DNA of 64,000 nucleotides, taken from Candidatus Omnitrophota bacterium. GTDB taxonomy: Bacteria; Omnitrophota; Gorgyraeia; 2-01-FULL-45-10. The notes under the pieces are model-generated. The model saw only the letters and a program-made list of their open reading frames with translations. It did not search any database and had not been told where the DNA came from. The stretch lies in NCBI GenBank assembly GCA_043798375.1, contig JAZDOS010000042.1, positions 5,037 to 69,036 on the forward strand, read 5' to 3'. Shown piece after piece: positions 20,401 to 34,066 of this stretch. Position 1 is the stretch's first letter; the number at the start of each line of letters is the position of its first letter. Both the position numbers and the translations under genes were made by a program.

Positions 20401-23400
20401 TTTTTAGGACAGCATCCCCGGGAACCATGGAACTTCTGGACCAGTGGCGTACGGAATCAGGCGCGGACCACGAGATAACGCCTAAAGATGTTGTCGCGGT
20501 CATCATGGCCGGCGGCGGCGGAGAAAGGATGTGGCCGCTCAGCGTTACGGAAGACCCCAAACAGATAACCGATATCATTGACGAGAAACTCCTTGTCATG
20601 GCCGTCCGCAGGGTGATAGAGCATCTGGGAAGGAAGAATGTCTACATCCAGACCATCCCAAAGCTTAAAGATAAGATCGTAAAATTGTTAAAGGATGCCG
20701 GTCTGAATATCCCGAAAGAAAATATATTCGCCGAGCCGGAATCTGCGGACACATCAGGCGCGATAGGCTATGCAGCCGCAAAGTTAAAGAGGTTGGGCAG
20801 AGGCAATGACGTGATGTTCGCATGTACCGCCGACCATTATATAGATGTAACCTCACCCGATTTCAGGAGCGCCTATATGCACGCGGCTAAGATAGCCAAG
20901 CACAATCAGGCGATAGGTACGTTGGGCATCGATCCCGAGCCAATAGGCGTATCGGAAGAATACGGCTGTATAAGGAAAGGCGGAGAGACCTTTTATGAAG
21001 GAGGCCATGTAGCCGCTAAGTTCATCGAAAAACCGAAAGGGAAAGACGCGAAAGATATATTCAAGGAAAGACTCCCTGATAATAGCCACGTATGGCTTTA
21101 TAATAGCGGGATGTTCATAGGAAGACCCGATATATTTTTAGAGGCGTTCAGGCAAGTCGCTCCTGTCTACGGCGAGGCGTTCGATGCCATAGCGGACCCG
21201 GAGGCTACGCTGGAGACGGAGGCGAAGGCCTTCAAGCAGTTAGGTGAGAATAAAAAGAAGGGTGGGTTTATTCATTCCGGAGAACCGACAGGATTCCGCA
21301 AGGGCGTATCGGTGGATTATGTATTAGCCCAGCCCGTCTCGAAGATGGAAACCGACAGGATCGCGCTATTTATGGTTGCGGGCACATTCAAATGGAAAGA
21401 TATAGGCAGTTATGCGATGGCCTATGCATATTATAAAGATGATTATCTCGGAACGCCTGACAAAGGAGACGCATCCGCAAAAACAGGTGTCTATAAAGAC
21501 GCAGATAATAATATCGTTGTGAACAAATCCTCCGACATAACACCGGCGCCCTATGTTAATTTTGAAAGCTGCTCAGAATGTTTTGTCATTGCCAATGATC
21601 CTGATGCGAGGATAACGCTTAAGAATCTCACAAGAACGATAGTAATCTATAACCCGACTACAAAATCGGTTATGGTGGCGCCTATTAGCGTAGAAGGCGA
21701 TTCTATAAAGAAGCTTCAGGGCAGGATAGGGGCGAGGGCCGCCTTAAAAGGTTATGTATTGGGCAATTTATCAGGGATTGAGCCGTCAAAAAAGAGAGCG
21801 GTGATTAGGGGCAGGTATGATGATAAGACAAGCTCAATTGTCATGGAAGAAGCTGACCAGAAGAATAATGTTGTCGAAGAGTATCTGCAGGGCAACGGCA
21901 TAATCATCGGATCCGAAGGATGCAGTATATCTGTAGGTGTTGGGCTCGCCACAATTGTTGATATGAAAGACGTCTCTCTGGACGTGCGACAGTCAACCGC
22001 TGACGGCATAAATATATCAGTGGAGAAGAAAGGCCCTGCCGCGGCATCGGCAGGTACGGCAGTTTCCGCGGGGATCACACTCGCGCATCTAGAGACACCT
22101 GCGGAGCGGATAGGGAACACAAGGATGATGCTTGAGCGGCTGGATATAAATCACATTACGCCCGCCGCATATGCCGGCGTTTACGGCGTGAGCGAGGATA
22201 TCGCGAAAACGGAGATAGGTAAGATATACGAAGAAGATATCGATAGAATAATAAAGATCGCGGCAGGCATCTCCAGGCTTAAAATCGATAGGAGCGACCC
22301 CGCTAAAATAGCCCATTTGGACGGCGAGATCGAAAAGCTGCAGAAGACGGTAAAAGATATCGTGCTCGAGAGAAAGAGCCGCGGCACGCTCGTTCCAGGA
22401 TGGATAAGGCTTGTCGTAGAAGGCATAAAAGACAGGGCGGAGTACAAGGAATCTTCACGGGTCAGGAGCGAAACGGTCCGGCTGTGCAATACCGTCTTTG
22501 CCGAATCAAAGGAAAACGAAATATTACAAGATGCCGCCAGGACAGAGAAGGAGCGCATCTTAAAAGATAAAGAGCTTATTACCTTGAGTCCGGCCATATG
22601 CAGGCGCGATTCAGTCAGGGCAGAAGACGCCGAACTTGAATTATCGGATACCATAGCCAATATATTGGGCAAGTCTATGGTGATGCTTATGCTGAAACAG
22701 ACAAAATTGACCGATCCGTCTAAACTAAAAATGGTCGTGGGCAGAGAATCGCGGATCACTGGTCGGCGCATATTATCCGCTTATAAGAGAGGCCTCCTTG
22801 ATATGGGCGCCAATGTTTTGGACATCTCCAAGACGGAGATCGATACCCTTGAAGGAAGGCAGGTAAGCGAGGTGGTAAGTACGCCTCTCATCTATTTTGC
22901 CAATCAGCTTCTCAACCCGTCCTCTGCTACCGAGATAACCGCAAGCCACCTACCTAAAGCCGCAAACGGTATTAAACCGACCATCATGAAAAGGAACGTT
23001 ACAGCGGATGAGATGAAGGTGTGGGAAGAACTGACCCATGATATTATTGACGGGAAGATCAAACCGTCCGGAAACAAGGGAGCCGAGACGAGCGATGCAT
23101 CGGTCTTGGGTTATTACCATTTGATGCTCAGCGCTACCCTGGCCGAAATAATAAATGATGAATCAAATGCCGCAGGACAGGCCCTCGTGAATAAGTGGCG
23201 CCTGGGGAGAAACGATGTCCTTAATAATGGGAAGACTTTAAAACAAGCGCTTGATGATATAAAGAACGAGGTCGCGGCATATATGGGAAGTAATCCTCTG
23301 TGCGGCATGAAGATGGAAATAGACCCCGGCAACGGCTCCATGGGGCCGATAGCGATTCCCTTACTGATAGGCCTTGGAGCAGAAATCCCGGCCGCGCCGA

Positions 23401-26400
23401 CGCACATACCGGACGGAATATTTGAAGGACTGGGAAGGCATGACTCAAACCCAAATATCCCGGATAACCTGCGTATCCTCATACGGAGAGTCTTCGATAA
23501 CAAGGCAAGTATGGGGGAGGCCTTTGACGCCGACGGCGACAGGCTCGGCGTTATTTCAAGCGAAGGCGACTATCTGCAGGGCGACGATATAGCGTGCCTT
23601 ATAGCTCCCGTACTTATAAAGATGAGAAAGGAATTGACCGGCAAAGAACCGGTCGTTATCGTCAATAATCTCTGCAGTGATCAGCTGAAACAAGTTATCA
23701 GGGAGGCGGGCGGTAGGGCGGTTGAATGCAATGTAGGTTTCACTAATGTAAAAGCGAAGATGACCGAGTTAAGAGATCAGGGTAATGAAGCGATCATGGG
23801 CGTGGAGCTTTCCTCACACATTATGATGGATATGAATTTCGACTCGGATGACGCGTTTTTCGCATCGATTGTGCTTATAGGCATATTGAAACAGAAGGCC
23901 CGCGAGCTTAGCGTGACACCGCAGGAGGTAATGGGGCTCATGCGGAAGGAATTAAATGCCAGATATTTTAAGGTAAATCCCATAGGAGAGGGCCGCGTAT
24001 TGATGTTAACAGACGATACGCGCAAAGAGGCGGCCGCGAAAGCAGTGGAAGAATGCAAGAGGAGGATCGGCGATCCAGAGTATCAGTATATATACGAGAA
24101 GAATCCTGATAGGGAGACGGAAGACCTGGAACGGGAAGGCGGGATCAAGATAGATGTAAAAGAGAGAGAGACCGGCGAGCTTATGGGTTGGTTTGTTATA
24201 AGGCCGTCCGGTACCTCGGCGGAGATAGTCGTCACCGCGGAGTCGGTAGTCGGCGTCCATGCCGAATCGGAGGCAAATGCCATTATGAACGCCCATAAGA
24301 TCAAACAGGAGGTGATAGACCTTCTCCGTCCTTATGAGAGATGGGTTAAGGTTGACGAGATACAGCCCTCGGACTTTGGCGCTGTCTTCAAAGCAAGGCT
24401 CGAAGGCAAGGATGTCTCTGAAGTTAGAGCTGTCGAGAGAGCTGATATCTTCAGAAAATCAGTCGGCATGCTGGCTGTGGGGCAGGCAGATGAAACGCCG
24501 CTTACGCCCGGCGCGGATGAAATAATCGCGTCGATTATGGAAGAGGTTGTGGTGCCCGAAGGCATAAGCGAAGCGAGGAACGCGGCGGCGGGAGAGCGAT
24601 TGATGCAGGAAATAAAGGGTAGCCTTCCCGGCGAGCATACGGATAGGATCGCCTCCATATATAATGAAGTGGTAGCGAGGGTTAAAGCGGCGCGTCTCGG
24701 GACCCGCATAGCCGCTCAGGAAACGACCGCGCAGTTTCTCGCAACTCAGGAAGTGAGGGACGTTACGGTTAATGGGGAAACAGGCGCCCTTATTGTGCCG
24801 TCATCCAGCGATTACAAGGACAGGGGCCAGCACGATTCTACTTACATGAAACTAAGGGGCCTGGCCGCGAATGCCTTGGTTAGCGCGCGGAAATTGTTCG
24901 CGCGGCACCAGTATGAGACGGTTTATTCCATGAACCACGGCGCTCTTCCGATCCCGGAGACGTTGAGGCAATTGGCGTCTTATAACAACGTAAGCCCGGA
25001 AAATTACAGGATTCACGATACATTCTTCCCGCAGGTGAATCCGCTGTTCCCGGGAAGCATACAGTACCAGGTTACGGGCGCCCATTACCAGGCGAATGTC
25101 TTTGACATAAAGTATGTTACCGAGGGTAAAGGCCTGCAGTATCTTGTAAAGGTTGACAGGAAGGCGTTTGAGGAGACCGGCAAGGTCGTCGTGGTCGATA
25201 CGATCGTGCAGGAGATGGCGCCCGGCAAATGGGTATACGCCCTGCCCGGCTATATAGATATAGTGGTGAATAAAGGGGCATTGAGATTTAATGATGTTTC
25301 CTATGAATTGAGCCCGCAGGAACTGGAAAAACTCGAAAACGAGACCGGCTTTAAAATAGATATGGATACGAATTTCTATGAGAAACTGCCGGCGAAAGGG
25401 ATGGCGCATCTATTCTACATGTATAACGGCGAGACGCGTGTTGCGCTCAACCCCGAAGTTATGCCCGAAGGTAACCTCAATATAAGGGTAATGTCAGCTG
25501 GCCTTCCGACGATGGCCGAAAAAGAACTTAAAGTAGGCCTCATGGAGATTTACGCGGCCAATCCAGGCATAGTTCAGTCCATGATGTCGCTTCGATATCT
25601 TGAGACAGTTAATGAGAAGATGCCGTTTGCGCCTGCCATGATACAGGCAATTCATCCGAAAGAAACCATCGTGCCGGAATCGATCGATGTCTTGAATAGC
25701 AGCGCTCAAGAAGCGGCCTTATTCTTTGAGGCATTAGAACAAGAGATCGGGCAAGGGAATCCTATAGAATTCTTACCCAATGTGAGATGCGGCAGGAAGA
25801 ACAATCAGACTTGGGGCGTGCCTGTCAGCGTGTCGATGATACTCGAAGGGCTGGGGGCTCGAACTCGGCAGGAAAAAGAGGCGCTTGTCGATAGGCTTAA
25901 GATTGATATCGATGATGTGGTGAGCGAGCTCTGGATAGGCGCGGACATGGAGCATCCGTCAATGGTAAATGTAAAGACAAAGTATTCAGCGCCTGTATAT
26001 GTGCTATTCGGTAATTATCCCGAAGAAACTTTCGGCAAGGATCATTTAGACGCATTCGGCCGGGATTTCGGCTTGTTGATAAAACACCTCAATTCGGCCA
26101 GATACTTATCCGCCCAGAACCATGTATTTACCGAAGGGGTAATACCTTTAAATAAAGAATCGGTTGCGGTGATGGGATTCGCGAGAGATATAGGGCCCCA
26201 GGAATTGGAAGAAGAATTGATCCGGGGAAAAGAAGAATCGCTTAATAGGGTTGTTCTTATGGAGGGAAAACCCTATCTTGTTCCCAAAGGCATGATGCAT
26301 GCCTATGGGCCTGTCAATGTCCTTGAGATAAAGGAACAGAGCCTTGGAAAACCTGATACGGGTATGACCAATTCCATATATGATAGGTTAAGCGTGCCGG

Positions 26401-27605
26401 CAGGACAGAAGACGCCTCCGGCCGAATGGCCAACGATGAGACAGAATAATCCGGCGGAACTTGCAAAGGCTGTTGGCATCGATTCCAGGAGGACCGGAAA
26501 AGACGTATTGACCATGGCCCGCGAGGCATGGCAGAGGGCATTAAACGTTATGGCCGAGAACAATATGCTGAAGGAGGCAAAACCTCAAGATTATGAATCG
26601 CCGGTTATAAACTTACGTCCCCAAGCGATAGGCGGTAAACTGGAAGGCATGATGTTAGAGCCGGGCTTTGTCGTTGAGAGGTTTGAGATCCATGCAGGCC
26701 AGACGATGTTAGCTGAGGAGCTCACGTTCGGCAGGGCGAGCATAATCATGGTGCAGGAAGGCGCGGTGGATTTGACAACAGAAAAAGATGTGCCGATAAC
26801 GACATTGAAAGCCAAAACAGAAGATAGGTACAGGCTTAATCTATCTGCATATCCGTCTTATAAGATTACAGCCGCTCAGGGCCGGAAGGCTATCGTTGAT
26901 GTGATGTATAAACCTCTTCCGGCCGAGGCGCTCGTCAACACGGGCTTTGAGGCAATTCGCGCCAATCTTCCCGCTGTGCGAAGCCAGAAAGTTCATTTGC
27001 TCACGACTTCAAAAGCGTTCCGAAGGGGTGACGTGCGTGACCGCGAACCCGGCTCGTTCAGATATGAAAAGGAGATTTTAAACCGCGTATCCGACGGCAG
27101 GGTGGAATTATCGGAAGTCATAAGCTGTGACGCGGGCGAATTGAAAGAGGCCCTGCAGGGTTTGATGAAGGGCGAAGAAGGCGTCAATTACGTCGTCCAA
27201 CTTACCGAGGGCGAATTTAATTCGATCAAAGACGATAAGGACATAGCGAGGCTTTTGAAAGATACGAGGCTCATGGTTCTTCCCAATGTCAAGCTTGGCG
27301 AAAACCGCGGCATACCGTTCATCAGAGAGATTGAATCGGCCGGTGTAATACTCGGTAATACAAAACCGGAGGATATCCGGGATAAGACGGCTATAGCCGG
27401 ATGGTTGAAGACCGTAATGTCGAAGTTGACCGGCAACAAAGCGATCGACTGGGAGATGCTCGCGACGCTATTGAAGTCGCCGGACCCGGCGATGTCATTC
27501 GCCGACAGGATAAGTATTCTGCTCAAGAACCTGCAGGTCAGGATCCAGCCGCACAAGGCCGATGAAGGCGTGCGTGAAAGGCGGCAGCTCTTGTGGAGCG
27601 TGTAA
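17412..27605 (+). CDS. Giant secreted multidomain protein (3397 aa) with an N-terminal signal peptide, an embedded ManC-like mannose-1-phosphate guanylyltransferase domain, an embedded ManB/PGM-like phosphohexomutase domain, and large novel regions
   Basis: aaggag RBS 8 nt upstream of the ATG. Signal peptide MIFRKTISVFVIFTFLFSNVAFA. Uninterrupted 10.2 kb ORF. Confidence 0.85.
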   Translation: MIFRKTISVFVIFTFLFSNVAFAVPAKSNIELAGNNETVTTPESIVVPRDFGLVKSKFNGNSGKLIVHIQDAHCNYEAQSNIVKILEGLVKNYSFGLVAVEGADGFIDTSWFKAFPDDEVRKEVADYFMKKGEITGPEFLSITTNLPFKLFGAETRSYYIQNLNAFTSSYPLKDETEKYFNSIKAVLNRLKGFIYSEELKVLDTKIQDYESKKLQFNDYIRFLQAIAEKHKINLRSYDNFFRLVSVLIYEKKIDFNITDKERSALIDELSKAVAKDQLQQLVTQSISFKSGKISSAEYYAYLKNLAAANGIDLSKKYPNLYNYIIYNAVYSKIENEKLFQDLKKIEIAVKEKLFANDDQRALEKLSRHIDILLGLINIKLMNGDFDYYQADKSEFTSEYFEDFIKKKVIQFGLAYDVMAPTEAVAQSIPKLEDFYSIAIKRDKALVDNTLDAMKKEKQNIAVLVTGGFHSEGIAKLLEKQGVSYMVVCPSITKDVPSPYIQILTNQRTPLEDILIGTAHAKEGMVAAPSRAQLITMPDSAFKDYVGRLEAGEKLALAIKAAEEEWVDVTVSGAEGAATPVGRVNIEGLVDRLKEDTGASIAGIVNELRHDLHQRCDRLHLSKISIEHLLALLEEKLTSPEFKAITDKFEAEYNERVANRAALEARRKGAAESGRKSPGRDAVAGIGERALRADEFGRYDSNLGANFEASRVETRDEELPGLRVHVHGDINGSFEEGIAAQNDDALLNGGATIPFPRVHPGTYRGSALSREIDGQIEEIAGQIHVSRYIWDSEKIADVSDSIKITKMDKEVVGNHEKAHLDIFAGKGDIFRLWLLYLEYCAIYKKFVDQEDFVDNIQSWVSLLTKWANKGTNDKGDIVKDAENKMPIKEWAVMNGVPLDARPGDFPNCNTIEIRKKIAALQALRIYKRARWALTNIDEKKMRIALTEAYVLAANYGDDELLSNIINLIPAQPGMRKEICGRAILQIAKWYPLWIRKDLFRTASPGTMELLDQWRTESGADHEITPKDVVAVIMAGGGGERMWPLSVTEDPKQITDIIDEKLLVMAVRRVIEHLGRKNVYIQTIPKLKDKIVKLLKDAGLNIPKENIFAEPESADTSGAIGYAAAKLKRLGRGNDVMFACTADHYIDVTSPDFRSAYMHAAKIAKHNQAIGTLGIDPEPIGVSEEYGCIRKGGETFYEGGHVAAKFIEKPKGKDAKDIFKERLPDNSHVWLYNSGMFIGRPDIFLEAFRQVAPVYGEAFDAIADPEATLETEAKAFKQLGENKKKGGFIHSGEPTGFRKGVSVDYVLAQPVSKMETDRIALFMVAGTFKWKDIGSYAMAYAYYKDDYLGTPDKGDASAKTGVYKDADNNIVVNKSSDITPAPYVNFESCSECFVIANDPDARITLKNLTRTIVIYNPTTKSVMVAPISVEGDSIKKLQGRIGARAALKGYVLGNLSGIEPSKKRAVIRGRYDDKTSSIVMEEADQKNNVVEEYLQGNGIIIGSEGCSISVGVGLATIVDMKDVSLDVRQSTADGINISVEKKGPAAASAGTAVSAGITLAHLETPAERIGNTRMMLERLDINHITPAAYAGVYGVSEDIAKTEIGKIYEEDIDRIIKIAAGISRLKIDRSDPAKIAHLDGEIEKLQKTVKDIVLERKSRGTLVPGWIRLVVEGIKDRAEYKESSRVRSETVRLCNTVFAESKENEILQDAARTEKERILKDKELITLSPAICRRDSVRAEDAELELSDTIANILGKSMVMLMLKQTKLTDPSKLKMVVGRESRITGRRILSAYKRGLLDMGANVLDISKTEIDTLEGRQVSEVVSTPLIYFANQLLNPSSATEITASHLPKAANGIKPTIMKRNVTADEMKVWEELTHDIIDGKIKPSGNKGAETSDASVLGYYHLMLSATLAEIINDESNAAGQALVNKWRLGRNDVLNNGKTLKQALDDIKNEVAAYMGSNPLCGMKMEIDPGNGSMGPIAIPLLIGLGAEIPAAPTHIPDGIFEGLGRHDSNPNIPDNLRILIRRVFDNKASMGEAFDADGDRLGVISSEGDYLQGDDIACLIAPVLIKMRKELTGKEPVVIVNNLCSDQLKQVIREAGGRAVECNVGFTNVKAKMTELRDQGNEAIMGVELSSHIMMDMNFDSDDAFFASIVLIGILKQKARELSVTPQEVMGLMRKELNARYFKVNPIGEGRVLMLTDDTRKEAAAKAVEECKRRIGDPEYQYIYEKNPDRETEDLEREGGIKIDVKERETGELMGWFVIRPSGTSAEIVVTAESVVGVHAESEANAIMNAHKIKQEVIDLLRPYERWVKVDEIQPSDFGAVFKARLEGKDVSEVRAVERADIFRKSVGMLAVGQADETPLTPGADEIIASIMEEVVVPEGISEARNAAAGERLMQEIKGSLPGEHTDRIASIYNEVVARVKAARLGTRIAAQETTAQFLATQEVRDVTVNGETGALIVPSSSDYKDRGQHDSTYMKLRGLAANALVSARKLFARHQYETVYSMNHGALPIPETLRQLASYNNVSPENYRIHDTFFPQVNPLFPGSIQYQVTGAHYQANVFDIKYVTEGKGLQYLVKVDRKAFEETGKVVVVDTIVQEMAPGKWVYALPGYIDIVVNKGALRFNDVSYELSPQELEKLENETGFKIDMDTNFYEKLPAKGMAHLFYMYNGETRVALNPEVMPEGNLNIRVMSAGLPTMAEKELKVGLMEIYAANPGIVQSMMSLRYLETVNEKMPFAPAMIQAIHPKETIVPESIDVLNSSAQEAALFFEALEQEIGQGNPIEFLPNVRCGRKNNQTWGVPVSVSMILEGLGARTRQEKEALVDRLKIDIDDVVSELWIGADMEHPSMVNVKTKYSAPVYVLFGNYPEETFGKDHLDAFGRDFGLLIKHLNSARYLSAQNHVFTEGVIPLNKESVAVMGFARDIGPQELEEELIRGKEESLNRVVLMEGKPYLVPKGMMHAYGPVNVLEIKEQSLGKPDTGMTNSIYDRLSVPAGQKTPPAEWPTMRQNNPAELAKAVGIDSRRTGKDVLTMAREAWQRALNVMAENNMLKEAKPQDYESPVINLRPQAIGGKLEGMMLEPGFVVERFEIHAGQTMLAEELTFGRASIIMVQEGAVDLTTEKDVPITTLKAKTEDRYRLNLSAYPSYKITAAQGRKAIVDVMYKPLPAEALVNTGFEAIRANLPAVRSQKVHLLTTSKAFRRGDVRDREPGSFRYEKEILNRVSDGRVELSEVISCDAGELKEALQGLMKGEEGVNYVVQLTEGEFNSIKDDKDIARLLKDTRLMVLPNVKLGENRGIPFIREIESAGVILGNTKPEDIRDKTAIAGWLKTVMSKLTGNKAIDWEMLATLLKSPDPAMSFADRISILLKNLQVRIQPHKADEGVRERRQLLWSV
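20480..21440 (+). other. Mannose-1-phosphate guanylyltransferase (ManC/GMP-like NTP-transferase) domain inside giant protein 2
   Basis: AVIMAGGGGERMWPLS (GGxGxRLWPLS), EPESADTSGAIGYAAA, TADHYIDV, TLGIDPEPIGVSEEYGCIRKG, KFIEKPKGKDAKDIF...WLYNSGMFI, WKDIGSYAMAY. Confidence 0.7.
22630..24300 (+). other. alpha-D-phosphohexomutase (phosphomannomutase/phosphoglucomutase-like) domain inside giant protein 2
   Basis: Active-site serine loop ITASHLPKAANGIK (TASHNP-like), Mg loop FDADGDRLGV, sugar loop GVELSSH, phosphate loop IRPSGTSAEIVV (RPSGTEP-like). Confidence 0.65.
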
Positions 27606-28144: not shown

Positions 28145-31100
28145 TTGAATAATATTATGCGGAAATACAGAATTATCATCAACACCCTGGCCTGGCTTGT
28201 CATAATAAGCCAGGCCTTTACGCTAAGCCCCGTGTATGCCGACTCGCTCGCCACTCCCAAATTAACCCATCCCGACGCCAATCAGGCCAGAGCCATATCC
28301 AACCTTGCTGAGTTCGAGGTATGCTACGGTGAAAGGCTTTTATATAAGGGTGAAAAGCTTTCGTCCGTTAATTCCGTTTTAAAAAATAGATTTCTGGACA
28401 GGAAAAAAGTTTATTTGAATGAACCGTCTATCCTGGTGCGGGAGAATCTAAAACTCGGTCAAGTTGAATTTATAAGCTACGACAGAGAGAAACAGGCGGG
28501 CGTCTTTAGGTTTAAAGGCAAACCGGACAATTTATATACGGTAGCGCTTATTCCCAGGCAGGGCAAGTACTCGATAACCCTTCATAAGAATTCCTCCGGC
28601 TCGGCATCTCAAAGCCTTGCAAAAACAACTGATAGTCAGGATGAACCCCTCACCGGACACGGGTTCAGCGTGGAGGATGTCAACAAAGTCAAGCTTACGG
28701 CATGGAGCGAATCCGGCGCTTTCAGGAAGGTCATGGATGAGCTCGAAGATATTTTAAAAGCCCGCGCGCCGGATAATCTGAAAGAACTGCTTTTTTATAC
28801 CCTGTCGGCATTTAAAGAAGGCCGTGACGGCCGGCAGCTCGGTTACACGCCCGCCCGCTACAAAGACCCGGCTCATTATTATCTCGGTTTCGGGACATCG
28901 AGATCGATATGCCTCGCCTCCGAATTCCTGGATGAAGAAAGCCCGTTATCGAAATTTGCCGCCGAAGAGCTGTTTCACGAGTTACTGCACGCGGCAATGG
29001 ATATTTCCAAAGACGATTCTTACATCGAGAGCGAGACGGCCAATCATATAACGTCGCTCAGATTGGCCGCGCAATTTTTCTGGGGATTGCCGGAAGAAGA
29101 AGCGCTCTCCCTCTCCCCGAATATGCTCGAGCACCATTCCAGGAACAGCCTCGGCGACGCGATAAGGCTGTGGAAGACGGAACAGCAGGATATACGCGAC
29201 GCCGTCCTCAACAATAAACCGCTTGAATTGAAAAAGATGTTAGTCGACGCGTTAAAGAGAATCGGCAATAATCCGTCGAAACTCTTCGATATTCTCGCCG
29301 TCTGCGATGCCGCGTCGGACGAGATGAAAAGGCATCCGATACAGAGCCGCTATCCTCTGCTTATGGCGGTAACCTTACTGAATAGGAAGCAGAAACTGCA
29401 GCTTGTTAAAGCGGTTAAACAGGGCGGCGATGCTATCGCGGATCTTAAAATAGCGGATTCCGTTCTCCTTATGCTGGAGAAGAAGGTGCGGCCCGATTGG
29501 TTGGGGCACCAGGCGCCCAATCTAAAAGGAAGAACCGTATGGCAGGTTGCCTCGGAGATATGGAATCCCGGCGGAGGGTTAGGGCGCGTAATGCAGTTTG
29601 AGGCCTTTTCTTTCCGCGACATGTTAGGCCAATGCGCGGGCGATGTCCGTCTGAGAACCATAGAACCCCATTACGCGTACGGAAAAGACGGAGTGCCCCT
29701 GGATTACGATAAGATACTCGGCGCTTACGAGGGCAAAGAAGAAAATAGGCTGAAAGAAGTGGATACTTTCGAAGTAACGGTTGGTGACGAGACAGCAATC
29801 GCGGTATGTTCACGCGCCCTCAATCAGCATGGGATCGAAAGTTATATAATTAAGCTCCTCAAGAGGGGCGCAGACGGCAGCCTCTCCCCATATTATACGG
29901 AGGGCATGTATCTTTATCGCGGCGCTGAAGCGCCCGCCGCTGTTCCGATAGAAGATTTTTCCGCGTTCTTCTCTGCCGCCTCGCTTGAGCTTGTCGCGAG
30001 AATTGAGGCAGGGGAAAAAAAGGCTTCCGAGGAAGCCTCATCCTTCTGGAACTATCCGGTCGTATATTTTAATGACGGCCAGCTCGGGCTCGCTCCGTTA
30101 TTCCGCCGGGCGTTCGAACATTTTTCCAATAACCCGATTCTCAAGGAAGCATTAGTCGCTTACAAGACTCACACCTATCCGAACCGGGTCTTTTTCGATG
30201 TGCGCGAGAAGAACGGGGATGAGGGGTATGGCATAAAAGTCCTGAAGCGCTTCGGGATACCGGAAAAATACTGGGAGTATTTTACCCATGTTATCGGTGA
30301 AGAACTGAGCCAGGAGACGAGAGAAGTAGCCGATTTTACATCGGCGGGCCTGCGCTCGGCGGACTGGCAGGCAGGCGTAAGCGCCAAGCAGGCCGACGAC
30401 GTATCGATGTATGACGACTGGGGAAAGTGGAAAGATTTCTTCGAGCTTGTAGCCATAACAAACGGAGATTACCTGCCGATCACCGAATCCCGTTTTGCCG
30501 AGGCCGCCAGGGAAGCGCTCGCGGCCGCCGACATCGAAAGCCTGACCCCCATGCAGGTCTTTGTGGCGAACAGGCGCGCGAAAGAAAACCTGAACGCCTT
30601 TTTGATCAAGCGGCTCGGCGATAAGTATATTTTCGGGATAAGCCCGGACAAACCCGTTCTTTCATATTCCGGAAGGGGTGTTGACGAAAAAGCCGGAAGG
30701 AACAGGGCCCTGTCAAACAGCAACATCATAACTCTGGTGAAGATGGGCGTCCAGGTGGTGATAGGTTTTAATGTCCAGAGCGAGAAACATAACAGGGACG
30801 AGCTGGATAAACTTGCCGAAGAATTGCGCGAGGCAAAAAGCAAAGATCCGGACGGTTACCCCGGCAATTTTATATTTGTCCCCGACAGCGACATAGAAAT
30901 TCAGAGGCTTATCCTTGCCGCTTCAGACGCTCAGGTCCAGGATTCGGATCCGAGGACGGAGGCCGCCGGTTATACGGAATCGAATATAAAAAGGTGCGCC
31001 GGGTTGCAGATAGCGCCGCCCTGGCCCGAGGGAATACTGCAGGCAGGCATCCCCTTTAATTTTAATAAACTCGGAGAAGGGGCTACCATTATTCCGGAAA

Positions 31101-34066
31101 TTACCCTGTCGGAAAGCGATTTGAAAAAATTGCGGCGCGGCGCCTATGATCCCGAGCTGAATAAAAGAGTGAGCCATGCTTACCTTGAATCGTATAAGAA
31201 ACTATTTTCGCTGGGTTATAAGGACGAGGCGGGCCTTGATGAAAATATTCTGGCTAACCTGCGTCAATTGTCGCACCATCAGGCTAACGCGATAAAATTG
31301 AGCCGCGTCTTCGACGCGTGGCTCACTGTGGCTGAAGAGATGCGGCAGTGGTCGGGCGCGATAGAGAAAAGGTTCCCGCGGCCCATAGAAACTCCGCCTG
31401 AAAAACGCGTGGTAATGCTCATATCGGGCGGCGAATCGCCGGGGGTGAACGATTACTTCTCGCTTATGGCAAAGTCGCTCGCGAAGCAGGGCTGCTCCGT
31501 GGAGGCCGTGAGATTCGGGTTGGACGGGCTTGTCCGGGCCAGTGTAGAATTCGACGGAAATCGCGTATGGATCGACTGGGGTAAATCCGAGAATATACTG
31601 CACGCGCCGGGCGCTTTTGAAGGGACCGCGAGGGTAAGGCTCGATGACGCGGGCATGCAGGCCCTGTTGGATAATCTGAAAAGTTATTGTAAAACGCTCG
31701 TCGTCATCGGCGGAAATGACCATCTGGGCGAAGCGGAAAAGATAGCGAAACGGTTAAAATCCGAAGATTCCGATATGGCCGTAGTGGCGCTTCCTAAGAC
31801 GATAGACCGCGATACGAAAATTTATCCGATCGGCGCCGATACCGCCGCCCGGAACGCCAACAAACTGGTTTTGCGCGCGGCGGCCCTGCCGGGATCCGGC
31901 AAGTGCGTTGTCGTCCAGATGATGGGCCGCGACATGGGCTATTTCGCGGTAAGGGCGGGAGATATGAAGCCGAAGGTTCGGGACGGTTATACCGACGCCG
32001 AGATAAATAAGATGGATATTGTCCGGCCCACCGTCGCAACGCTCGTGCCAAATAAGCCGGTACCGCTTTCGGATGTAATTGACGCGGTCAGGGTAAGGAT
32101 GAAGAAATACGGCGCCGCGACGCTCGTCATATCGGAAGGATTCAGGCTTTCCAGGATCACAAGGGACTCGTCCGGAGTTTTTAAATGCGATAGCGATAAA
32201 TTGCTGGAGGGCGCCCTCGAGGATAAATTATTATCGGCAAAACTCGCGAACCTCTCTACCGATGAGCAGGGGAACCCTAATCTCAGCGGACTGGTTGTGG
32301 CGGACTTTCTCGCGGAAGTCCTCGCCCGGGACGAAGAATTAAAATTGATAAGGGAAGAGAACCTGTTGCTTGAAAACCCGAATTACAGCTTCAGGGCTTC
32401 CGCGCCAAACAGCCTTGACCGCGCCGTCGCGGATAAAGCGATCGACTTAGCGAGCCGCGTAATATCAGATCCGGACGAACGCGCGAAGGCAATAAATGCG
32501 GGCGGTGTATGTATCGCCGCAAAGAGGACCGTTTCCAAAGCGGAAGACGTCGAAGTGTCTGTCATACCTTTATCCGAGGCGACAGGAAAGGTAGGCCTTG
32601 ATGACAGCGGCCTCTATACGGATGAGGAATTGTCCGAAAGAAACGTTATCGGATATGCCTCGCCGACAGATAACCTTCCCGATATGCCCGAAACCGAAAG
32701 CCCCGCGCATCCAGCCGGTTATAATAGAGAACATGCCATCATGTGGTTAAATTCCCAGGCGGAATCCGCGAGCGAGATGCAGGCAAAAAGGGGTGATGGC
32801 TGGAGAAGGCCGAATATATGCGTTATCGCCAGGCCGGACGCCGACGATATCATATCGGACCTGAAATACAGAAAGGCCGTATCCAGGGCCGATGAGTACA
32901 TAATGGAGAGGATAGGGAAAGCGACCGTATATATCCCCGCGCTCGAGCCCGTATCTCTATTGGCCATAATAAGGAAGTCGTATGAAGCCTACAATAACTA
33001 TCATATGCTCAATTTGGTGCTGGCGGGGAATATCGAGATCGATAAAAACGACGCTCTGCTGGCAAGATTAATGGAGAACCCTTCCACTAAAGACGCGTGC
33101 GGGGCTATTGTCGGCGGCGCCAGGCATTCCGGAGGAGACAGGTTGATATTCGGAAGAAGGCTCGCGGATCTTATTTCGATGGTTCTTTCTTCGTCCGAAT
33201 CCGTCGCGGCGCTCGCGGCGTTCGGCGAAAAGGCGGGATCGCCCATGACCGATATAAGGACCAATATTCTCGGGGAATCGCTGAACTTATTGCCCGGCGA
33301 GAACGGCCAGCGCATTAAGGCGATCGCCGCTTCTGTTACCGGGGCTATGCCTCAAGCCGAACCGGCGGTTGTAATGAGCGATGACGATATTAACGCTGTG
33401 GTAGAAGCATCCTCCGACGCGGGCGAAGACGCCAGGAAGGCCGCGGAGGCCGAATTCCCCGGCGAAATGCACCTTGTATTCGTCAGGAAGGCGATCCCCG
33501 ATATTCAGCAATCGACTACAATCGCGATGAACGTCTTAAATCTCTGCAGGGAATATTACGCGGATAAACTCGAAGGTTATACCGTTGATATCGTCGACGA
33601 TCACAAGGCCGCCATGGAGCTTCTCGCGAGAAATCCCAACTGGTCCAGGAATGATACAATAATAGGGCTTGTCGATAAGGAAAGCCTTGAAGAGCTGGCA
33701 GGTGAGCTTGAAGCCGGCAATATGACGGATAAGGCAAAGATATTATCGATGCAGAAGGCGGATGACGGCCAGTTTGTTCCCATCAAGCCGTTTTTTGACC
33801 TCATGGCAGCTATCGTGAGGATCAATAGGCCTCTCGACAGGGTGGAAGACAGGGATCTCATCGATTATATCAAAGAGCTGTTAATAAAGATCGGAACCAG
33901 GGATATAGACAGGCTTACCGAAGTCCTTGCCTCTGCCGACTTCCACGATCCTATCCGATTTGCCAGGGACTTTATTATAAGGCTGCTGCCTCCGGCAAGA
34001 AAATTCGACACGACAACGCTGAAAAAACTCTACCAGGCCTCCAAGCTCGTCGTCGAGTCGCTGTAA
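28145..34066 (+). CDS. Giant secreted multidomain protein (1973 aa from the TTG at 28145; the alternative ATG at 28157 gives MRKYRIIINTLAWLVIISQAFTLSPVYADS) with an embedded GT-B glucan phosphorylase/synthase-like segment and a phosphofructokinase-like domain
   Basis: Signal peptide; uninterrupted 5.9 kb ORF; motifs listed under the sub-features. Confidence 0.8.
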   Translation: MNNIMRKYRIIINTLAWLVIISQAFTLSPVYADSLATPKLTHPDANQARAISNLAEFEVCYGERLLYKGEKLSSVNSVLKNRFLDRKKVYLNEPSILVRENLKLGQVEFISYDREKQAGVFRFKGKPDNLYTVALIPRQGKYSITLHKNSSGSASQSLAKTTDSQDEPLTGHGFSVEDVNKVKLTAWSESGAFRKVMDELEDILKARAPDNLKELLFYTLSAFKEGRDGRQLGYTPARYKDPAHYYLGFGTSRSICLASEFLDEESPLSKFAAEELFHELLHAAMDISKDDSYIESETANHITSLRLAAQFFWGLPEEEALSLSPNMLEHHSRNSLGDAIRLWKTEQQDIRDAVLNNKPLELKKMLVDALKRIGNNPSKLFDILAVCDAASDEMKRHPIQSRYPLLMAVTLLNRKQKLQLVKAVKQGGDAIADLKIADSVLLMLEKKVRPDWLGHQAPNLKGRTVWQVASEIWNPGGGLGRVMQFEAFSFRDMLGQCAGDVRLRTIEPHYAYGKDGVPLDYDKILGAYEGKEENRLKEVDTFEVTVGDETAIAVCSRALNQHGIESYIIKLLKRGADGSLSPYYTEGMYLYRGAEAPAAVPIEDFSAFFSAASLELVARIEAGEKKASEEASSFWNYPVVYFNDGQLGLAPLFRRAFEHFSNNPILKEALVAYKTHTYPNRVFFDVREKNGDEGYGIKVLKRFGIPEKYWEYFTHVIGEELSQETREVADFTSAGLRSADWQAGVSAKQADDVSMYDDWGKWKDFFELVAITNGDYLPITESRFAEAAREALAAADIESLTPMQVFVANRRAKENLNAFLIKRLGDKYIFGISPDKPVLSYSGRGVDEKAGRNRALSNSNIITLVKMGVQVVIGFNVQSEKHNRDELDKLAEELREAKSKDPDGYPGNFIFVPDSDIEIQRLILAASDAQVQDSDPRTEAAGYTESNIKRCAGLQIAPPWPEGILQAGIPFNFNKLGEGATIIPEITLSESDLKKLRRGAYDPELNKRVSHAYLESYKKLFSLGYKDEAGLDENILANLRQLSHHQANAIKLSRVFDAWLTVAEEMRQWSGAIEKRFPRPIETPPEKRVVMLISGGESPGVNDYFSLMAKSLAKQGCSVEAVRFGLDGLVRASVEFDGNRVWIDWGKSENILHAPGAFEGTARVRLDDAGMQALLDNLKSYCKTLVVIGGNDHLGEAEKIAKRLKSEDSDMAVVALPKTIDRDTKIYPIGADTAARNANKLVLRAAALPGSGKCVVVQMMGRDMGYFAVRAGDMKPKVRDGYTDAEINKMDIVRPTVATLVPNKPVPLSDVIDAVRVRMKKYGAATLVISEGFRLSRITRDSSGVFKCDSDKLLEGALEDKLLSAKLANLSTDEQGNPNLSGLVVADFLAEVLARDEELKLIREENLLLENPNYSFRASAPNSLDRAVADKAIDLASRVISDPDERAKAINAGGVCIAAKRTVSKAEDVEVSVIPLSEATGKVGLDDSGLYTDEELSERNVIGYASPTDNLPDMPETESPAHPAGYNREHAIMWLNSQAESASEMQAKRGDGWRRPNICVIARPDADDIISDLKYRKAVSRADEYIMERIGKATVYIPALEPVSLLAIIRKSYEAYNNYHMLNLVLAGNIEIDKNDALLARLMENPSTKDACGAIVGGARHSGGDRLIFGRRLADLISMVLSSSESVAALAAFGEKAGSPMTDIRTNILGESLNLLPGENGQRIKAIAASVTGAMPQAEPAVVMSDDDINAVVEASSDAGEDARKAAEAEFPGEMHLVFVRKAIPDIQQSTTIAMNVLNLCREYYADKLEGYTVDIVDDHKAAMELLARNPNWSRNDTIIGLVDKESLEELAGELEAGNMTDKAKILSMQKADDGQFVPIKPFFDLMAAIVRINRPLDRVEDRDLIDYIKELLIKIGTRDIDRLTEVLASADFHDPIRFARDFIIRLLPPARKFDTTTLKKLYQASKLVVESL
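29500..30900 (+). other. GT-B fold alpha-glucan phosphorylase / glycogen-synthase-like segment (GT35/GT5-like) in giant protein 3
   Basis: VASEIWNPGGGLGRVMQF resembles the KTGGLGDV / SGGLGVLAGD glycine loop of glycogen synthase and alpha-glucan phosphorylase. Confidence 0.3.
31390..32130 (+). other. 6-phosphofructokinase-like (PFK family) domain in giant protein 3
   Basis: VVMLISGGESPGVND (GGDAPGMN-like), LVVIGGNDHLGEA (GGDGS-like but altered), ALPKTIDRDT (PKTIDND), QMMGRDMGYFA (MGR motif). Confidence 0.65.

Follow-up and report, generated by a model that had tools for sequence, protein, structure and literature searches.

The DNA at 31390 to 32130 of the window (the whole 64,000-nucleotide stretch of Candidatus Omnitrophota sequence analyzed here) was found to encode a genuine but unusual domain of the phosphofructokinase (PFK) family. 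Judged by residue comparison, its active-site signature is that of pyrophosphate (PPi)-dependent PFKs (Asp104, Lys124, Glu108, Tyr249, and an insertion), and the catalytic core is joined to a second, degenerate version of its own small domain, the two together making up a compact module of ∼640 amino acids. The best explanation of the whole, considered moderately likely, is an active PPi-dependent PFK module with a pseudo-subunit, linked to a phosphorolytic locus.

Layout of the gene and its product

The domain lies within an open reading frame whose probable start is the ATG at 28157, and the product has 100% identity to the NCBI entry [quoted passage not shown]. An assembly or frameshift artifact was ruled out because the reading frame is uninterrupted and the deposited protein is identical. 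From the N to the C terminus, the architecture consists of a signal-like N terminus, an HExxH domain, a GT5-like glycosyltransferase, the PFK module, and a C-terminal domain, as follows.

28145..34066, + strand: open reading frame
28157..34066, + strand: whole gene, multi-domain protein of 1,969 amino acids
28157..28240, + strand: Sec-signal-peptide-like N terminus (MRKYR, 18 hydrophobic residues, VYA|DS)
28244..29506, + strand: conserved N-terminal domain without a Pfam match
29507..31384, + strand: GT5-like (starch/glycogen-synthase-like) glycosyltransferase region, recognized via homologues P0002, P0003, and P0006
31376..33301, + strand: PFK module, ∼640 amino acids (residues 1074 to 1715), PFK core plus degenerate PFK small-domain copy
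31406..32431, + strand: Pfam PF00365 PFK match (residues 1084 to 1425)
32696..33301, + strand: extension, duplicated PFK small domain in degenerate form
33347..34063, + strand: C-terminal domain, ∼235 amino acids, at the extreme C terminus in all homologues having one

The N-terminal hydrophobic segment is the only one in the protein and is followed by a conserved LATP motif (nt 28247 to 28264). In the N-terminal domain, an HExxH motif, LFHELLH, is conserved (nt 28973 to 28990), and the GT5-like region carries a GGGLGRV motif at nt 29570 to 29590. For the latter region, the Pfam PF08323 cutoff was passed by the three homologues, with no match for the window sequence itself, and a search against PDB sequences gave no matches. 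When scanned with Pfam, four parts of the window protein had no match: N-terminal domain, glycosyltransferase region, extension, and C-terminal domain. The predicted structure of the C-terminal domain was confident, with an alpha/beta arrangement plus helices; its Foldseek search against the PDB returned nothing significant, the only matches being flavodoxin-like with a best E value of 0.016. An antisense reading frame at 31202..31723 was discarded as a mechanical call with nothing in its support.

Assignment to the PFK family

The initial annotation had inferred a PFK-like domain at 31390 to 32130 from family motifs and had made the assignment depend on a significant PFK match in Pfam. All four motifs were found there, once each and in frame, and their agreement with the PFK family far exceeds chance. 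The Pfam PF00365 match reached 92.5 bits (cutoff, 30.9; E value, 3.8e-26) and covered profile positions 1 to 266 of 277, while PFK sequences in the PDB were matched with E values down to 3e-11. The AlphaFold (AF2) model of the module had a pLDDT of 87.7 and a pTM of 0.90. Searched with Foldseek, this model gave 110 PDB matches at an E value of ≤0.001, and the matches listed (50/50) were all PFK or PPi-PFK chains. The best were the PFK of T. brucei (E value, 7e-18), the PPi-PFK of T. vaginalis, and PFKs of bacteria, for which the target-normalized TM score was ∼0.8 with a maximum of 0.82. Model and search together thus gave the two-domain PFK fold.

The location was therefore sound in that a PFK domain is present, but its 3′ limit was set too short. 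Beyond 32130 lie SEGF (nt 32132 to 32143), NYSFR with the equivalents of Tyr249 and Arg252 (nt 32381 to 32395), the end of the Pfam match (nt 32431), and the end of the module (nt 33301), and in the structure model the PFK core reaches residue ∼1500, past the Pfam match. The region first flagged covers the N-terminal two-thirds of the PFK catalytic domain.

At the level of curated subfamilies, the domain scored far under the cutoff of every NCBIfam ATP- and PPi-PFK model. None of the PPi-PFK models NF010675, NF005121, NF041103, NF005482, and TIGR02477 was passed, the best score being 50.8 bits against 273 for NF010675. The lowest NCBIfam E values were those to ATP-PFK models, though far under their cutoffs.

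Active-site residues and phosphoryl donor

Residue positions below 1000 follow the numbering of E. coli PfkA, the sequence of which was checked against 1PFK. The motifs were located as follows.

nt 31424-31450, + strand: SGGESPGVN (residues 1090 to 1098)
31709..31723, + strand: GGNDH loop (residues 1185 to 1189), equivalent to E. coli Gly101-Gly102-Asp103-Gly104-Ser105
31793..31813, + strand: PKTIDRD (residues 1213 to 1219) with Lys124 (Lys1214, PPi-type), Thr125, Asp127 (catalytic base), and Asp129
31922..31939, + strand: MGRDMG (residues 1256 to 1261), substrate-binding motif Met169-Gly170-Arg171
32132..32419, + strand: SEGF (Glu222), PPi-PFK-type insertion, then NYSFRASAPNSLD (Tyr249, Arg252)

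The proposed alteration of the GGDGS loop to GGNDH was borne out. Relative to E. coli, Asp103 is replaced by Asn (Asn1187), Gly104 by Asp (Asp1188, a PPi determinant), and Ser105 by His. Position 108 is Glu1192 and is Glu or Gln throughout the clade. Arg72, Thr125, Asp127, Asp129, the MGR motif, Glu222, and Arg252 are all present in the window sequence. The spacing from Glu222 to Tyr249 is 83 residues compared with 27 in E. coli, which corresponds to an insertion of 56 residues containing a DEQGNPNLSGL stretch and a predicted beta-hairpin, with strands at module residues 261 to 263 and 269 to 271 where the pLDDT is just 62 to 78.

Among the three residues singled out for inspection by the initial annotation, Asp127 is present and Arg162 is not; the window has Lys at 162, and the clade varies there. 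The third, Arg243, is alignment dependent: the position is Leu in the MAFFT alignment, with a mostly conserved Arg 1 to 4 residues upstream. As Arg162 is Lys and Arg243 is ambiguous, 6-phosphate binding is uncertain and, with it, which acceptor is used. An early idea that the core had clearly lost Arg243 and that the extension had kept it was downgraded after closer inspection of the alignment, because of this Arg just upstream in the core.

Two readings of the altered loop had been offered, a PPi-type donor or loss of catalysis. In published comparisons, all ATP-PFKs have Gly at 104, where PPi-PFKs have Asp; at 108, PPi-PFKs have a bulkier side chain than Gly, and they also carry an insertion at 220 to 230 (PMC10339645). 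The Asp104, Lys124, bulky residue at 108, and large insertion after Glu222 seen here support the first reading, and the domain is probably driven by PPi and not by ATP. The T. vaginalis PPi-PFK (TvPPi-PFK) preprint describes GGDD, KTID, MGR, and GXXXR motifs and a catalytic Glu, and the Mg2+ ligand Asp103 corresponds to its D114. In the module this ligand is absent, with Asn taking its place in ≥90% of the clade. P0009, a full NF010675 member (501 bits; cutoff, 273), likewise reads GGNDS, and the crystallized enzymes 3K2Q and 3HNO read GGGDS; by this comparison, Asp103 appears dispensable in the PPi-PFK family context. With Asn or Gly occurring at 103 in curated and crystallized PPi-PFKs as well, and with the GGNDH loop itself and the residues for catalysis and substrate binding conserved, the evidence supports the PPi-type reading and does not support loss of catalysis.

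Recurrence of the module and comparison with known PFKs

Two features went beyond the initial annotation, the recurrence of the module and its duplicated small domain. The module recurs in ∼25 other large proteins at 30 to 50% identity, and proteins sharing modules with the window protein reach 5,448 amino acids. GGNDH is conserved in ∼21 homologous modules, also at 30 to 50% identity, of which those with names are from Omnitrophota; among the retrieved proteins, GGNDH together with PK was seen 21 times, and the active-site residue pattern was the same in ∼20 relatives. Full-length relatives of the module were confined to Omnitrophota MAGs, plus one MAG labeled Planctomycetia. In an alignment of 14 modules, the mean column identity was 42%, and 16/36 invariant columns were canonical PFK motif positions. 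Arg72, Thr125, Asp127, Asp129, Met169, Gly170, Glu222, and Arg252 were invariant, and Arg171 and the Asn-Asp pair of the loop were conserved at ≥90%. Motif decay abolishing catalysis was rejected in view of this conservation throughout the clade.

The closest non-modular relatives are stand-alone Omnitrophota PFK-like proteins of ∼480 amino acids (P0056; L008 ORF 9947..11410), at ∼30% identity. They have in common with the module His105, Asp104, Lys124, MGR, EG, and Y/F-x-x-R, but keep Asp103 (GGDDH) and Arg or Lys at 162 and 243, and they are without the duplicated small domain.

The short-type PPi-PFKs (EC 2.7.1.90; T. vaginalis 9DQM/9MDT; NF010675/PRK14072, 3K2Q, 3HNO) share the fold of the module together with Asp104, Lys124-Thr-Ile-Asp, MGR, the catalytic Glu, G/N-Y-x-x-R, an aromatic residue in place of His249, a bulky side chain at 108, and the post-Glu222 insertion; NF010675 members, too, have Asn or Gly at 103 and not Asp. 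Identity to the module is ∼16 to 28%. In contrast to these enzymes, the module has the clade-specific His105 and an extra degenerate small domain and sits in a protein of 1,969 amino acids; known PPi-PFKs are cytosolic homo-oligomers, whereas this protein has a signal-peptide-like N terminus. The ATP-dependent PFKs of E. coli (PfkA, 1PFK) and B. stearothermophilus share the two-domain fold (target-normalized TM, ∼0.8) and Arg72, Thr125, Asp127, Asp129, Met169-Gly-Arg171, Glu222, and Arg252. From these the module differs by GGDGS to GGNDH, Gly124 to Lys, Gly108 to Glu, His249 to Tyr, Arg162 to Lys, and the 56-residue insertion.

Duplicated small domain

Compared with its own core by hhalign, the extension at 32696..33301 gave a probability of 96.6% and an E value of 6e-10, so that its homology to the core appears solid at the level of sequence profiles. 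Its SEGF motif has become AGNI, and it ends with a conserved NLLPGE. Two invariant arginines are kept, Arg1551 (RRPNICVIA) and Arg1701 (DIRTNILGE), at places analogous to Arg162 and Arg243, which in the ATP-PFK tetramer come in trans from the adjoining subunit to bind the 6-phosphate of F6P. Against canonical PFKs of ∼320 amino acids, the hhalign match of the extension was weak (probability, 12 to 20%), and the equivalence of Arg1551 to Arg162 is therefore only suggestive. Eukaryotic PFK-1 (e.g., yeast, 3O8O) is likewise internally duplicated, as a tandem copy of which the second lacks the catalytic motifs, whereas the module duplicates only the small (substrate-binding) domain of ∼200 amino acids. 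The Foldseek superposition on yeast PFK was poor (rmsd, ∼21 Å), so that the arrangement in the module is a different one, of independent origin.

Genomic neighborhood and proposed function

The gene adjoins a mannan/beta-glucan phosphorolysis locus, with GH130, two GH113 genes, GH94, PGM, and ROK downstream in the window; no second PFK was found within the window. A related, syntenic Omnitrophota contig has the order giant (GT5)-PFK protein-PGI-GFOx2-AP_endonuc_2-permease-GH130-MFS-PGM, as in the window. Two neighboring genes encode large proteins of 3,397 amino acids, with NTP_transferase and PGM/PMM domains, and of 5,669 amino acids, with HAD, NAGPA, and HD domains.

On the preferred reading, the module would be an active, reversible fructose-6-phosphate 1-phosphotransferase using PPi rather than ATP as the donor, and it would connect sugar phosphates from the adjacent GH130, GH94, and PMM/PGM locus with fructose-1,6-bisphosphate. 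The second copy of the small domain is a putative built-in pseudo-subunit that would replace the neighboring subunit completing the PFK active site, which may allow the module to work as a single-chain unit within a large polypeptide. Counting against this explanation are the Asn at the Mg2+ ligand position, the failure of all NCBIfam PFK models to reach cutoff, and the Lys at 162 together with the ambiguous placement of Arg243. Furthermore, the cleavable-Sec-like N terminus, with no other hydrophobic segment, predicts export to a compartment in which neither PPi nor F6P would be expected; the two preprints on Omnitrophota giant proteins note the same topology paradox (10.1101/2023.11.21.568195; 10.64898/2026.06.07.730766).

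Alternative explanations

The same observations, namely Asp103 to Asn with Ser105 to His, the curated models all under cutoff, and a predicted location without PPi or ATP, would suit a pseudoenzyme, in which the module has ceased to catalyze phosphoryl transfer and, within an exported multi-domain protein, binds sugar phosphates or PPi, regulates, or has a purely structural role. One clearly degenerate PFK half is already present in the module, and the lineage therefore tolerates inactive copies. This alternative is nonetheless fairly unlikely: the invariance of Arg72, Thr125, Asp127, Asp129, Glu222, and Arg252, with Arg171 and the loop Asn-Asp pair conserved at ≥90%, at a mean column identity of 42% is a pattern typical of active enzymes, the truly degenerate extension lost such motifs and the core did not, and Asn or Gly at 103 also occurs in full-length and crystallized PPi-PFKs.

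A PFK-fold phosphotransferase with another acceptor (sedoheptulose-7-P, tagatose-6-P, or a mannan-derived sugar phosphate) or another donor (polyphosphate) was judged unlikely. It would account for the unclear conservation of the F6P 6-phosphate binders (Lys/variable at 162, ambiguous at 243), for a donor site altered by the clade-specific His105 and Asn103, and for neighboring genes that process mannose and glucose phosphates, and changes at 162 and 243 in characterized PPi-PFKs have been discussed alongside dual use of F6P and S7P (PMC10339645). Against it, the fructose-contacting Glu222, Met169, Arg171, Arg252, and Tyr249 are all conserved, and in the syntenic locus a PGI gene adjoins the ortholog of the PFK protein, which points to F6P.

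An ordinary ATP-dependent 6-phosphofructokinase, as implied by the NCBI product name, by the lowest NCBIfam E values (to ATP-PFK models, far under cutoff), and by the ATP-using T. brucei PFK as top Foldseek match, is very unlikely. Asp104 blocks the ATP alpha-phosphate sterically and electrostatically and Glu108 the ribose pocket, Lys124 and the insertion after 222 are of the PPi type, and the entire clade conserves these features.

Relation to Omnitrophota giant proteins

The "Archaeovorins" (West-Roberts et al. 2023, 10.1101/2023.11.21.568195) and the "multi-enzyme metabolic clusters / sugar-metabolism Module 2" (10.64898/2026.06.07.730766) share with the window protein an origin in Omnitrophota, a mosaic of sugar-metabolism domains on one polypeptide, and an N-terminal signal or transmembrane segment. 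The likeness extends to the GT5 starch-synthase-like region here and to PGM/PMM and nucleotidyltransferase domains in the neighboring giant genes. The window protein is encoded in Omnitrophota and combines several unrelated enzyme domains with an N-terminal hydrophobic segment, as members of this class do, but at 1,969 amino acids, with neighbors of 3,397 and 5,669, it falls short of the tens of thousands of residues of the giant proteins. Enzyme domains in Omnitrophota giant proteins have thus been described, but the PFK module has not, the word "phosphofructokinase" having zero occurrences in both preprints.

Few enzyme families have been studied as thoroughly as PFK family A. The clade would extend its known structural repertoire by Asn in place of the Mg-binding Asp, an internally duplicated small domain, and use as a portable module of signal-bearing giant proteins, and central-metabolism domains in these proteins may be working enzymes, perhaps acting somewhere unexpected. 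In a bolder form, regarded as quite improbable, the preferred reading becomes a self-sufficient, single-chain "pseudo-dimeric" PPi-PFK in which the duplicated domain supplies the arginines that usually come from a neighboring subunit and which is Sec-exported. If true, a glycolytic phosphotransferase would be working in the periplasm, on the cell surface, or within prey cells and not in the cytoplasm, as one of a secreted toolkit of modular metabolic enzymes flanked by shared N- and C-terminal domains. A 2026 genome survey recovered pfkA in all 176 complete genomes only at relaxed thresholds, and divergent PFKs like that of the window may therefore matter for the annotation of glycolysis in the phylum.

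Assignment to the phosphofructokinase family

The open reading frame at 28145..34066 on the + strand, with ATG at 28157 as the likely start, encodes a 1,969-aa product that is 100% identical to the NCBI entry [quoted passage not shown]. The phosphofructokinase (PFK) family motifs reported in the initial annotation were borne out, each being found once and in frame. The extent given there for the domain, 31390-32130, contains the motifs it quoted but is too short, as the domain continues 3′. The motifs were as follows (Glu222, Tyr249 and Arg252 in E. coli PfkA numbering, in which Asn103 is Asn1187 of the protein).

Motifs of the PFK domain
aa 1090-1098, + strand: SGGESPGVN, single in-frame occurrence
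aa 1185-1189, + strand: GGNDH, single in-frame occurrence
aa 1213-1219, + strand: PKTIDRD, single in-frame occurrence
aa 1256-1261, + strand: MGRDMG, single in-frame occurrence
within nt 32132-32395, + strand: SEGF (Glu222) and NYSFR (Tyr249/Arg252), 3′ of the annotated limit

The Pfam family PF00365 (Phosphofructokinase) matched aa 1084-1425 at 92.5 bits (gathering score, 30.9; E 3.8e-26) and was the sole family found in a Pfam scan of the 1,969-aa protein. PDB PFK sequences also matched the domain (best E 3e-11), mostly over its first ~195 residues. Because PF00365 and the PDB sequences both match, the lack of a significant Pfam PFK match, named at the outset as the outcome that would overturn the assignment, does not apply. 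Its score above the Pfam threshold, its fold and its catalytic motifs place the domain in PFK family A; of the defining features, Asp103 is missing.

Active site and phosphoryl donor

To assign active-site positions, 31 PFK segments of retrieved proteins (28 of the clade and distant relatives and 3 canonical PFKs) were aligned with E. coli PfkA. The reference was identical to 1PFK chain A, and its conventional numbering equals the sequential numbering minus 1.

Residues of the window protein aligned with E. coli PfkA
E. coli 9-12: Ser-Gly-Gly-Glu
E. coli 72: Arg
E. coli 101-105: Gly-Gly-Asn-Asp-His
E. coli 108: Glu
E. coli 123-129: Pro-Lys-Thr-Ile-Asp-Arg-Asp
E. coli 162: Lys
E. coli 169-171: Met-Gly-Arg
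E. coli 222-223: Glu-Gly
E. coli 249: Tyr
E. coli 252: Arg

Of the three residues singled out earlier for checking, Asp127 was present, Arg162 was replaced by Lys and Arg243 had no unambiguous counterpart. The same active-site pattern held across the clade. In an alignment of 14 modules with a mean column identity of 42%, canonical PFK motif positions made up 16 of the 36 invariant columns, and positions 11, 103, 104 and 171 were conserved at 90% or more. A loop census of 161 retrieved proteins found GGNDH together with PK 21 times; Asn103 was also found in ordinary-length PFKs, within the loops GGNGS, GGNGT, GGNDT and GGNDS.

All ATP-PFKs have Gly at position 104, where PPi-PFKs have an Asp that keeps out the ATP alpha-phosphate by both steric and electrostatic means; PPi-PFKs also carry a bulkier residue in place of Gly108 and a beta-hairpin-containing insertion near residues 220-230 (PMC10339645). 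In the T. vaginalis PPi-PFK, Mg2+ is bound by the first Asp of the GGDD loop and PPi specificity comes from the second; further features are MGR, GXXXR, a catalytic Glu and KTID, of which the Lys is catalytic (bioRxiv 10.64898/2026.03.28.715000). All of these determinants were present in the window domain except the first Asp of GGDD. The spacing from Glu222 to Tyr249 was 83 residues, compared with 27 in E. coli, and a hairpin was predicted by the structural model within this stretch. The lost Asp103 is not disqualifying, since the retrieved protein P0009 has GGNDS and the crystallised PPi-PFKs 3K2Q and 3HNO have GGGDS. P0009 scores as a full member of NCBIfam NF010675, "diphosphate--fructose-6-phosphate 1-phosphotransferase" (501 bits; cutoff, 273).

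Because every determinant but Asp103 is present and the loss of Asp103 is not disqualifying, the sequence favours a PPi-type, catalytically competent enzyme. Of the two readings first proposed for the altered loop, the PPi type gains support from Asp104, Glu108, Lys124 and the insertion. The other, loss of catalysis, is unsupported, given the conserved catalytic motifs and the GGNDS and GGGDS loops of PPi-PFKs. An ATP-PFK is argued against by Asp104, Glu108, Lys124 and the insertion after Glu222. The domain probably functions in the manner of a short-type PPi-PFK. Against every curated PFK subfamily model, it scored far below the cutoff, with membership of no ATP- or PPi-PFK model, and its clade is, as judged from sequence, separate from the curated subfamilies.

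A duplicated small domain

From the 14-sequence alignment, AlphaFold2 built a compact model of the module (657 residues; mean pLDDT, 87.7; pTM, 0.90). A Foldseek search of the PDB with this model returned PFKs exclusively, among them T. brucei PFK (E 7e-18), T. vaginalis PPi-PFK, bacterial PFKs (target-normalised TM, ~0.8) and the yeast tandem PFK, the last with a poor rmsd. The PFK core accounts for ~430 residues and the remainder, aa 1514-1715, for ~200. A Pfam scan of this extension gave no match. Profile-profile comparison found it homologous to the C-terminal small, substrate-binding domain of the core (probability, 96.6%; E 6e-10). The extension is a catalytically degenerate copy, as it reads AGNI where the core has SEGF.

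Two invariant arginines are kept in the extension. Arg1551 directly precedes the counterpart of the MGR strand and is paired with Arg162 in a weak alignment to canonical PFKs; Arg1701 lies within DIR-TNILGE, resembling the E. coli Arg243-ATVLGH strand. The Arg162 and Arg243 of canonical PFKs cross the subunit interface and bind the 6-phosphate of F6P. The extra domain may serve as a built-in pseudo-subunit of the module, a tentative proposal that we rate at somewhat below even chances. The core may retain an Arg243-like residue of its own.

The stand-alone Omnitrophota relatives of ~480 aa (P0056 and a protein of the Omnitrophota locus L008) differ from the module in having GGDDH rather than GGNDH, in keeping Arg/Lys at 162 and 243, and in being without the duplicated small domain. 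The L008 protein (9947-11410; 487 aa; from an Omnitrophota MAG) is PFK-like, with GGDDH, LKTVDND, MGRDRG and the C-terminus ...MGVWWGV, and may represent a housekeeping PPi-PFK lineage ancestral to the giant-protein module.

Recurrence of the module in large proteins

With the first set of homologues, the protein shared only aa 1-1076, in which a signal-like N-terminus precedes a domain bearing the conserved LFHExxH motif and then a GT5 starch-synthase-like domain; beyond this part, these homologues have other sugar-enzyme domains (PGI-like, ROK, SIS and Fe-ADH). When aa 1074-1969 were searched exhaustively with HMMER against 1.84 billion cluster representatives, the matches resolved two independent units in this C-terminal half, of ~640-650 and ~235 aa. 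The first of them is the PFK module, aa 1074-1715, the borders of which are conserved (WPxP...PEKRVV and NLLPGE). The larger, PFK-containing unit was found at 40 to 50% identity in ~17 large proteins (689-5,448 aa) and at ~30% in several more. Among species-representative genomes, the full module was limited to Omnitrophota MAGs and one MAG labelled Planctomycetia.

The 1,969-aa protein belongs to an already described phenomenon, the multi-enzyme proteins of Omnitrophota. The conserved GG-N-D-H clade appears to be new, as do the "one-and-a-half PFK" module and its recurrence between common N- and C-terminal domains.

Two retrieved proteins, P0043 (5,105 aa) and P0050 (4,065 aa), carry two PFK-like modules in one chain, the second copy of P0050 having a degraded loop (GDKDH, PNSVD). 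Another, P0055 (2,620 aa; outside the window), contains PFK domains in tandem, five or more and apparently intact (GGDGT / PKTIDND), and is unrelated to the Omnitrophota module.

Genomic neighbourhood

Genes flanking the 1,969-aa protein
99-17108, upstream: 5,669-aa protein; Pfam matches to HAD Hydrolase_3, NAGPA phosphodiester glycosidase, MbnB/TglH-like TIM barrel and, weakly, HD
17412-27605, upstream: 3,397-aa protein; mannose-1-phosphate guanylyltransferase-like NTP_transferase (aa ~1029-1334) and PGM/PMM with all four domains (aa ~1739-2292)
34134-57392, downstream: mannan/beta-glucan utilisation locus centred on the phosphorylases GH130 and GH94

Both upstream genes encode mosaics larger than the 1,969-aa protein. 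In the 5,669-aa product, the Pfam scan found no family in the first 2,900 aa, its matches being confined to the second half. The PFK-bearing giants P0050 and P0058 have N-termini similar to the N-terminal "...IQDAHC..." region of the 3,397-aa protein. The downstream locus encodes two GFO/IDH/MocA oxidoreductases, a xylose-isomerase-like TIM barrel, ABC permeases, a GH130 mannoside phosphorylase, an MFS sugar transporter, PGM/PMM, two GH113 mannanases, CBM27, a GH94 phosphorylase, ROK, a solute-binding protein, a two-component system, GT2 and mannanase GBD proteins. No second PFK was found within the 64-kb window.

The related Omnitrophota contig L001 (1-23453) was syntenic with window positions 17412-42579, in the order 3,846-aa protein (APH, GT5, ELFV_dehydrog), 1,150-aa PFK-module protein (leader, PFK module, C-terminal region), PGI and GFO-GFO-TIM-permease-GH130-MFS-PGM. 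GT5 lies in the upstream 3,846-aa protein of L001, separate from PFK, whereas the two are fused in the window; a PGI gene stands beside the PFK protein in L001 and is absent from the window. The comparison shows that modules were shuffled between adjacent genes, and the PFK module is therefore a stable member of the locus with shuffled fusion partners.

Phosphorolysis gives sugar-1-phosphates, and F6P is the PFK substrate. Conversion of the sugar-1-phosphates to F6P via PMM/PGM and PGI or PMI could feed the PFK module, from which we infer a coherent cytoplasmic role in a phosphorolytic sugar-phosphate route.

Signal-like N-terminus and other domains

The N-terminus consists of MRKYR, 18 hydrophobic residues (the only hydrophobic stretch of the protein) and VYA|DS; by inspection, it has the anatomy of a putative cleavable Sec signal, and most relatives have a similar one. 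With export, a PPi- or F6P-dependent enzyme would end up away from the compartment in which its substrates are expected. The same paradox was described for the GT5, PGM, PGI, TIM, FBPase, aldolase and PPDK domains of Omnitrophota giant proteins (West-Roberts et al. 2023), and such metabolic content was predicted on the extracytoplasmic face (bioRxiv 10.64898/2026.06.07.730766); neither report mentions a PFK domain. A conserved (T/S)LA(T/I)(P/S) motif follows the signal-like segment (the two together spanning aa 1-36; 28157-28264), occurs within the first 70 residues in 8/54 retrieved proteins of at least 1,000 aa, and could be a processing or sorting signal.

In 15 of the 16 large proteins that matched it, the end of the ~235-aa unit (aa 1731-1969; 33347-34063) coincided with the C-terminus. 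Its confident AlphaFold2 model (pLDDT, 91) is an alpha/beta sandwich with helices, with no significant fold match in the PDB; the unit has no Pfam family and may act in sorting, anchoring or assembly. By eye, divergent versions seem to close most PFK-module proteins (tails ...VVESL, ...VAAAA and ...WTSA).

An HExxH motif, LFHELLH (aa 273-278; 28973-28990), lies in the N-terminal domain, for which Pfam gave no match. The pattern LFHE[LI][LFY]H is conserved in five retrieved homologues (P0002, P0003, P0007, P0016 and P0027). The site may be zinc-metalloprotease-like and bears on the published idea of self-cleavage by Omnitrophota giant proteins.
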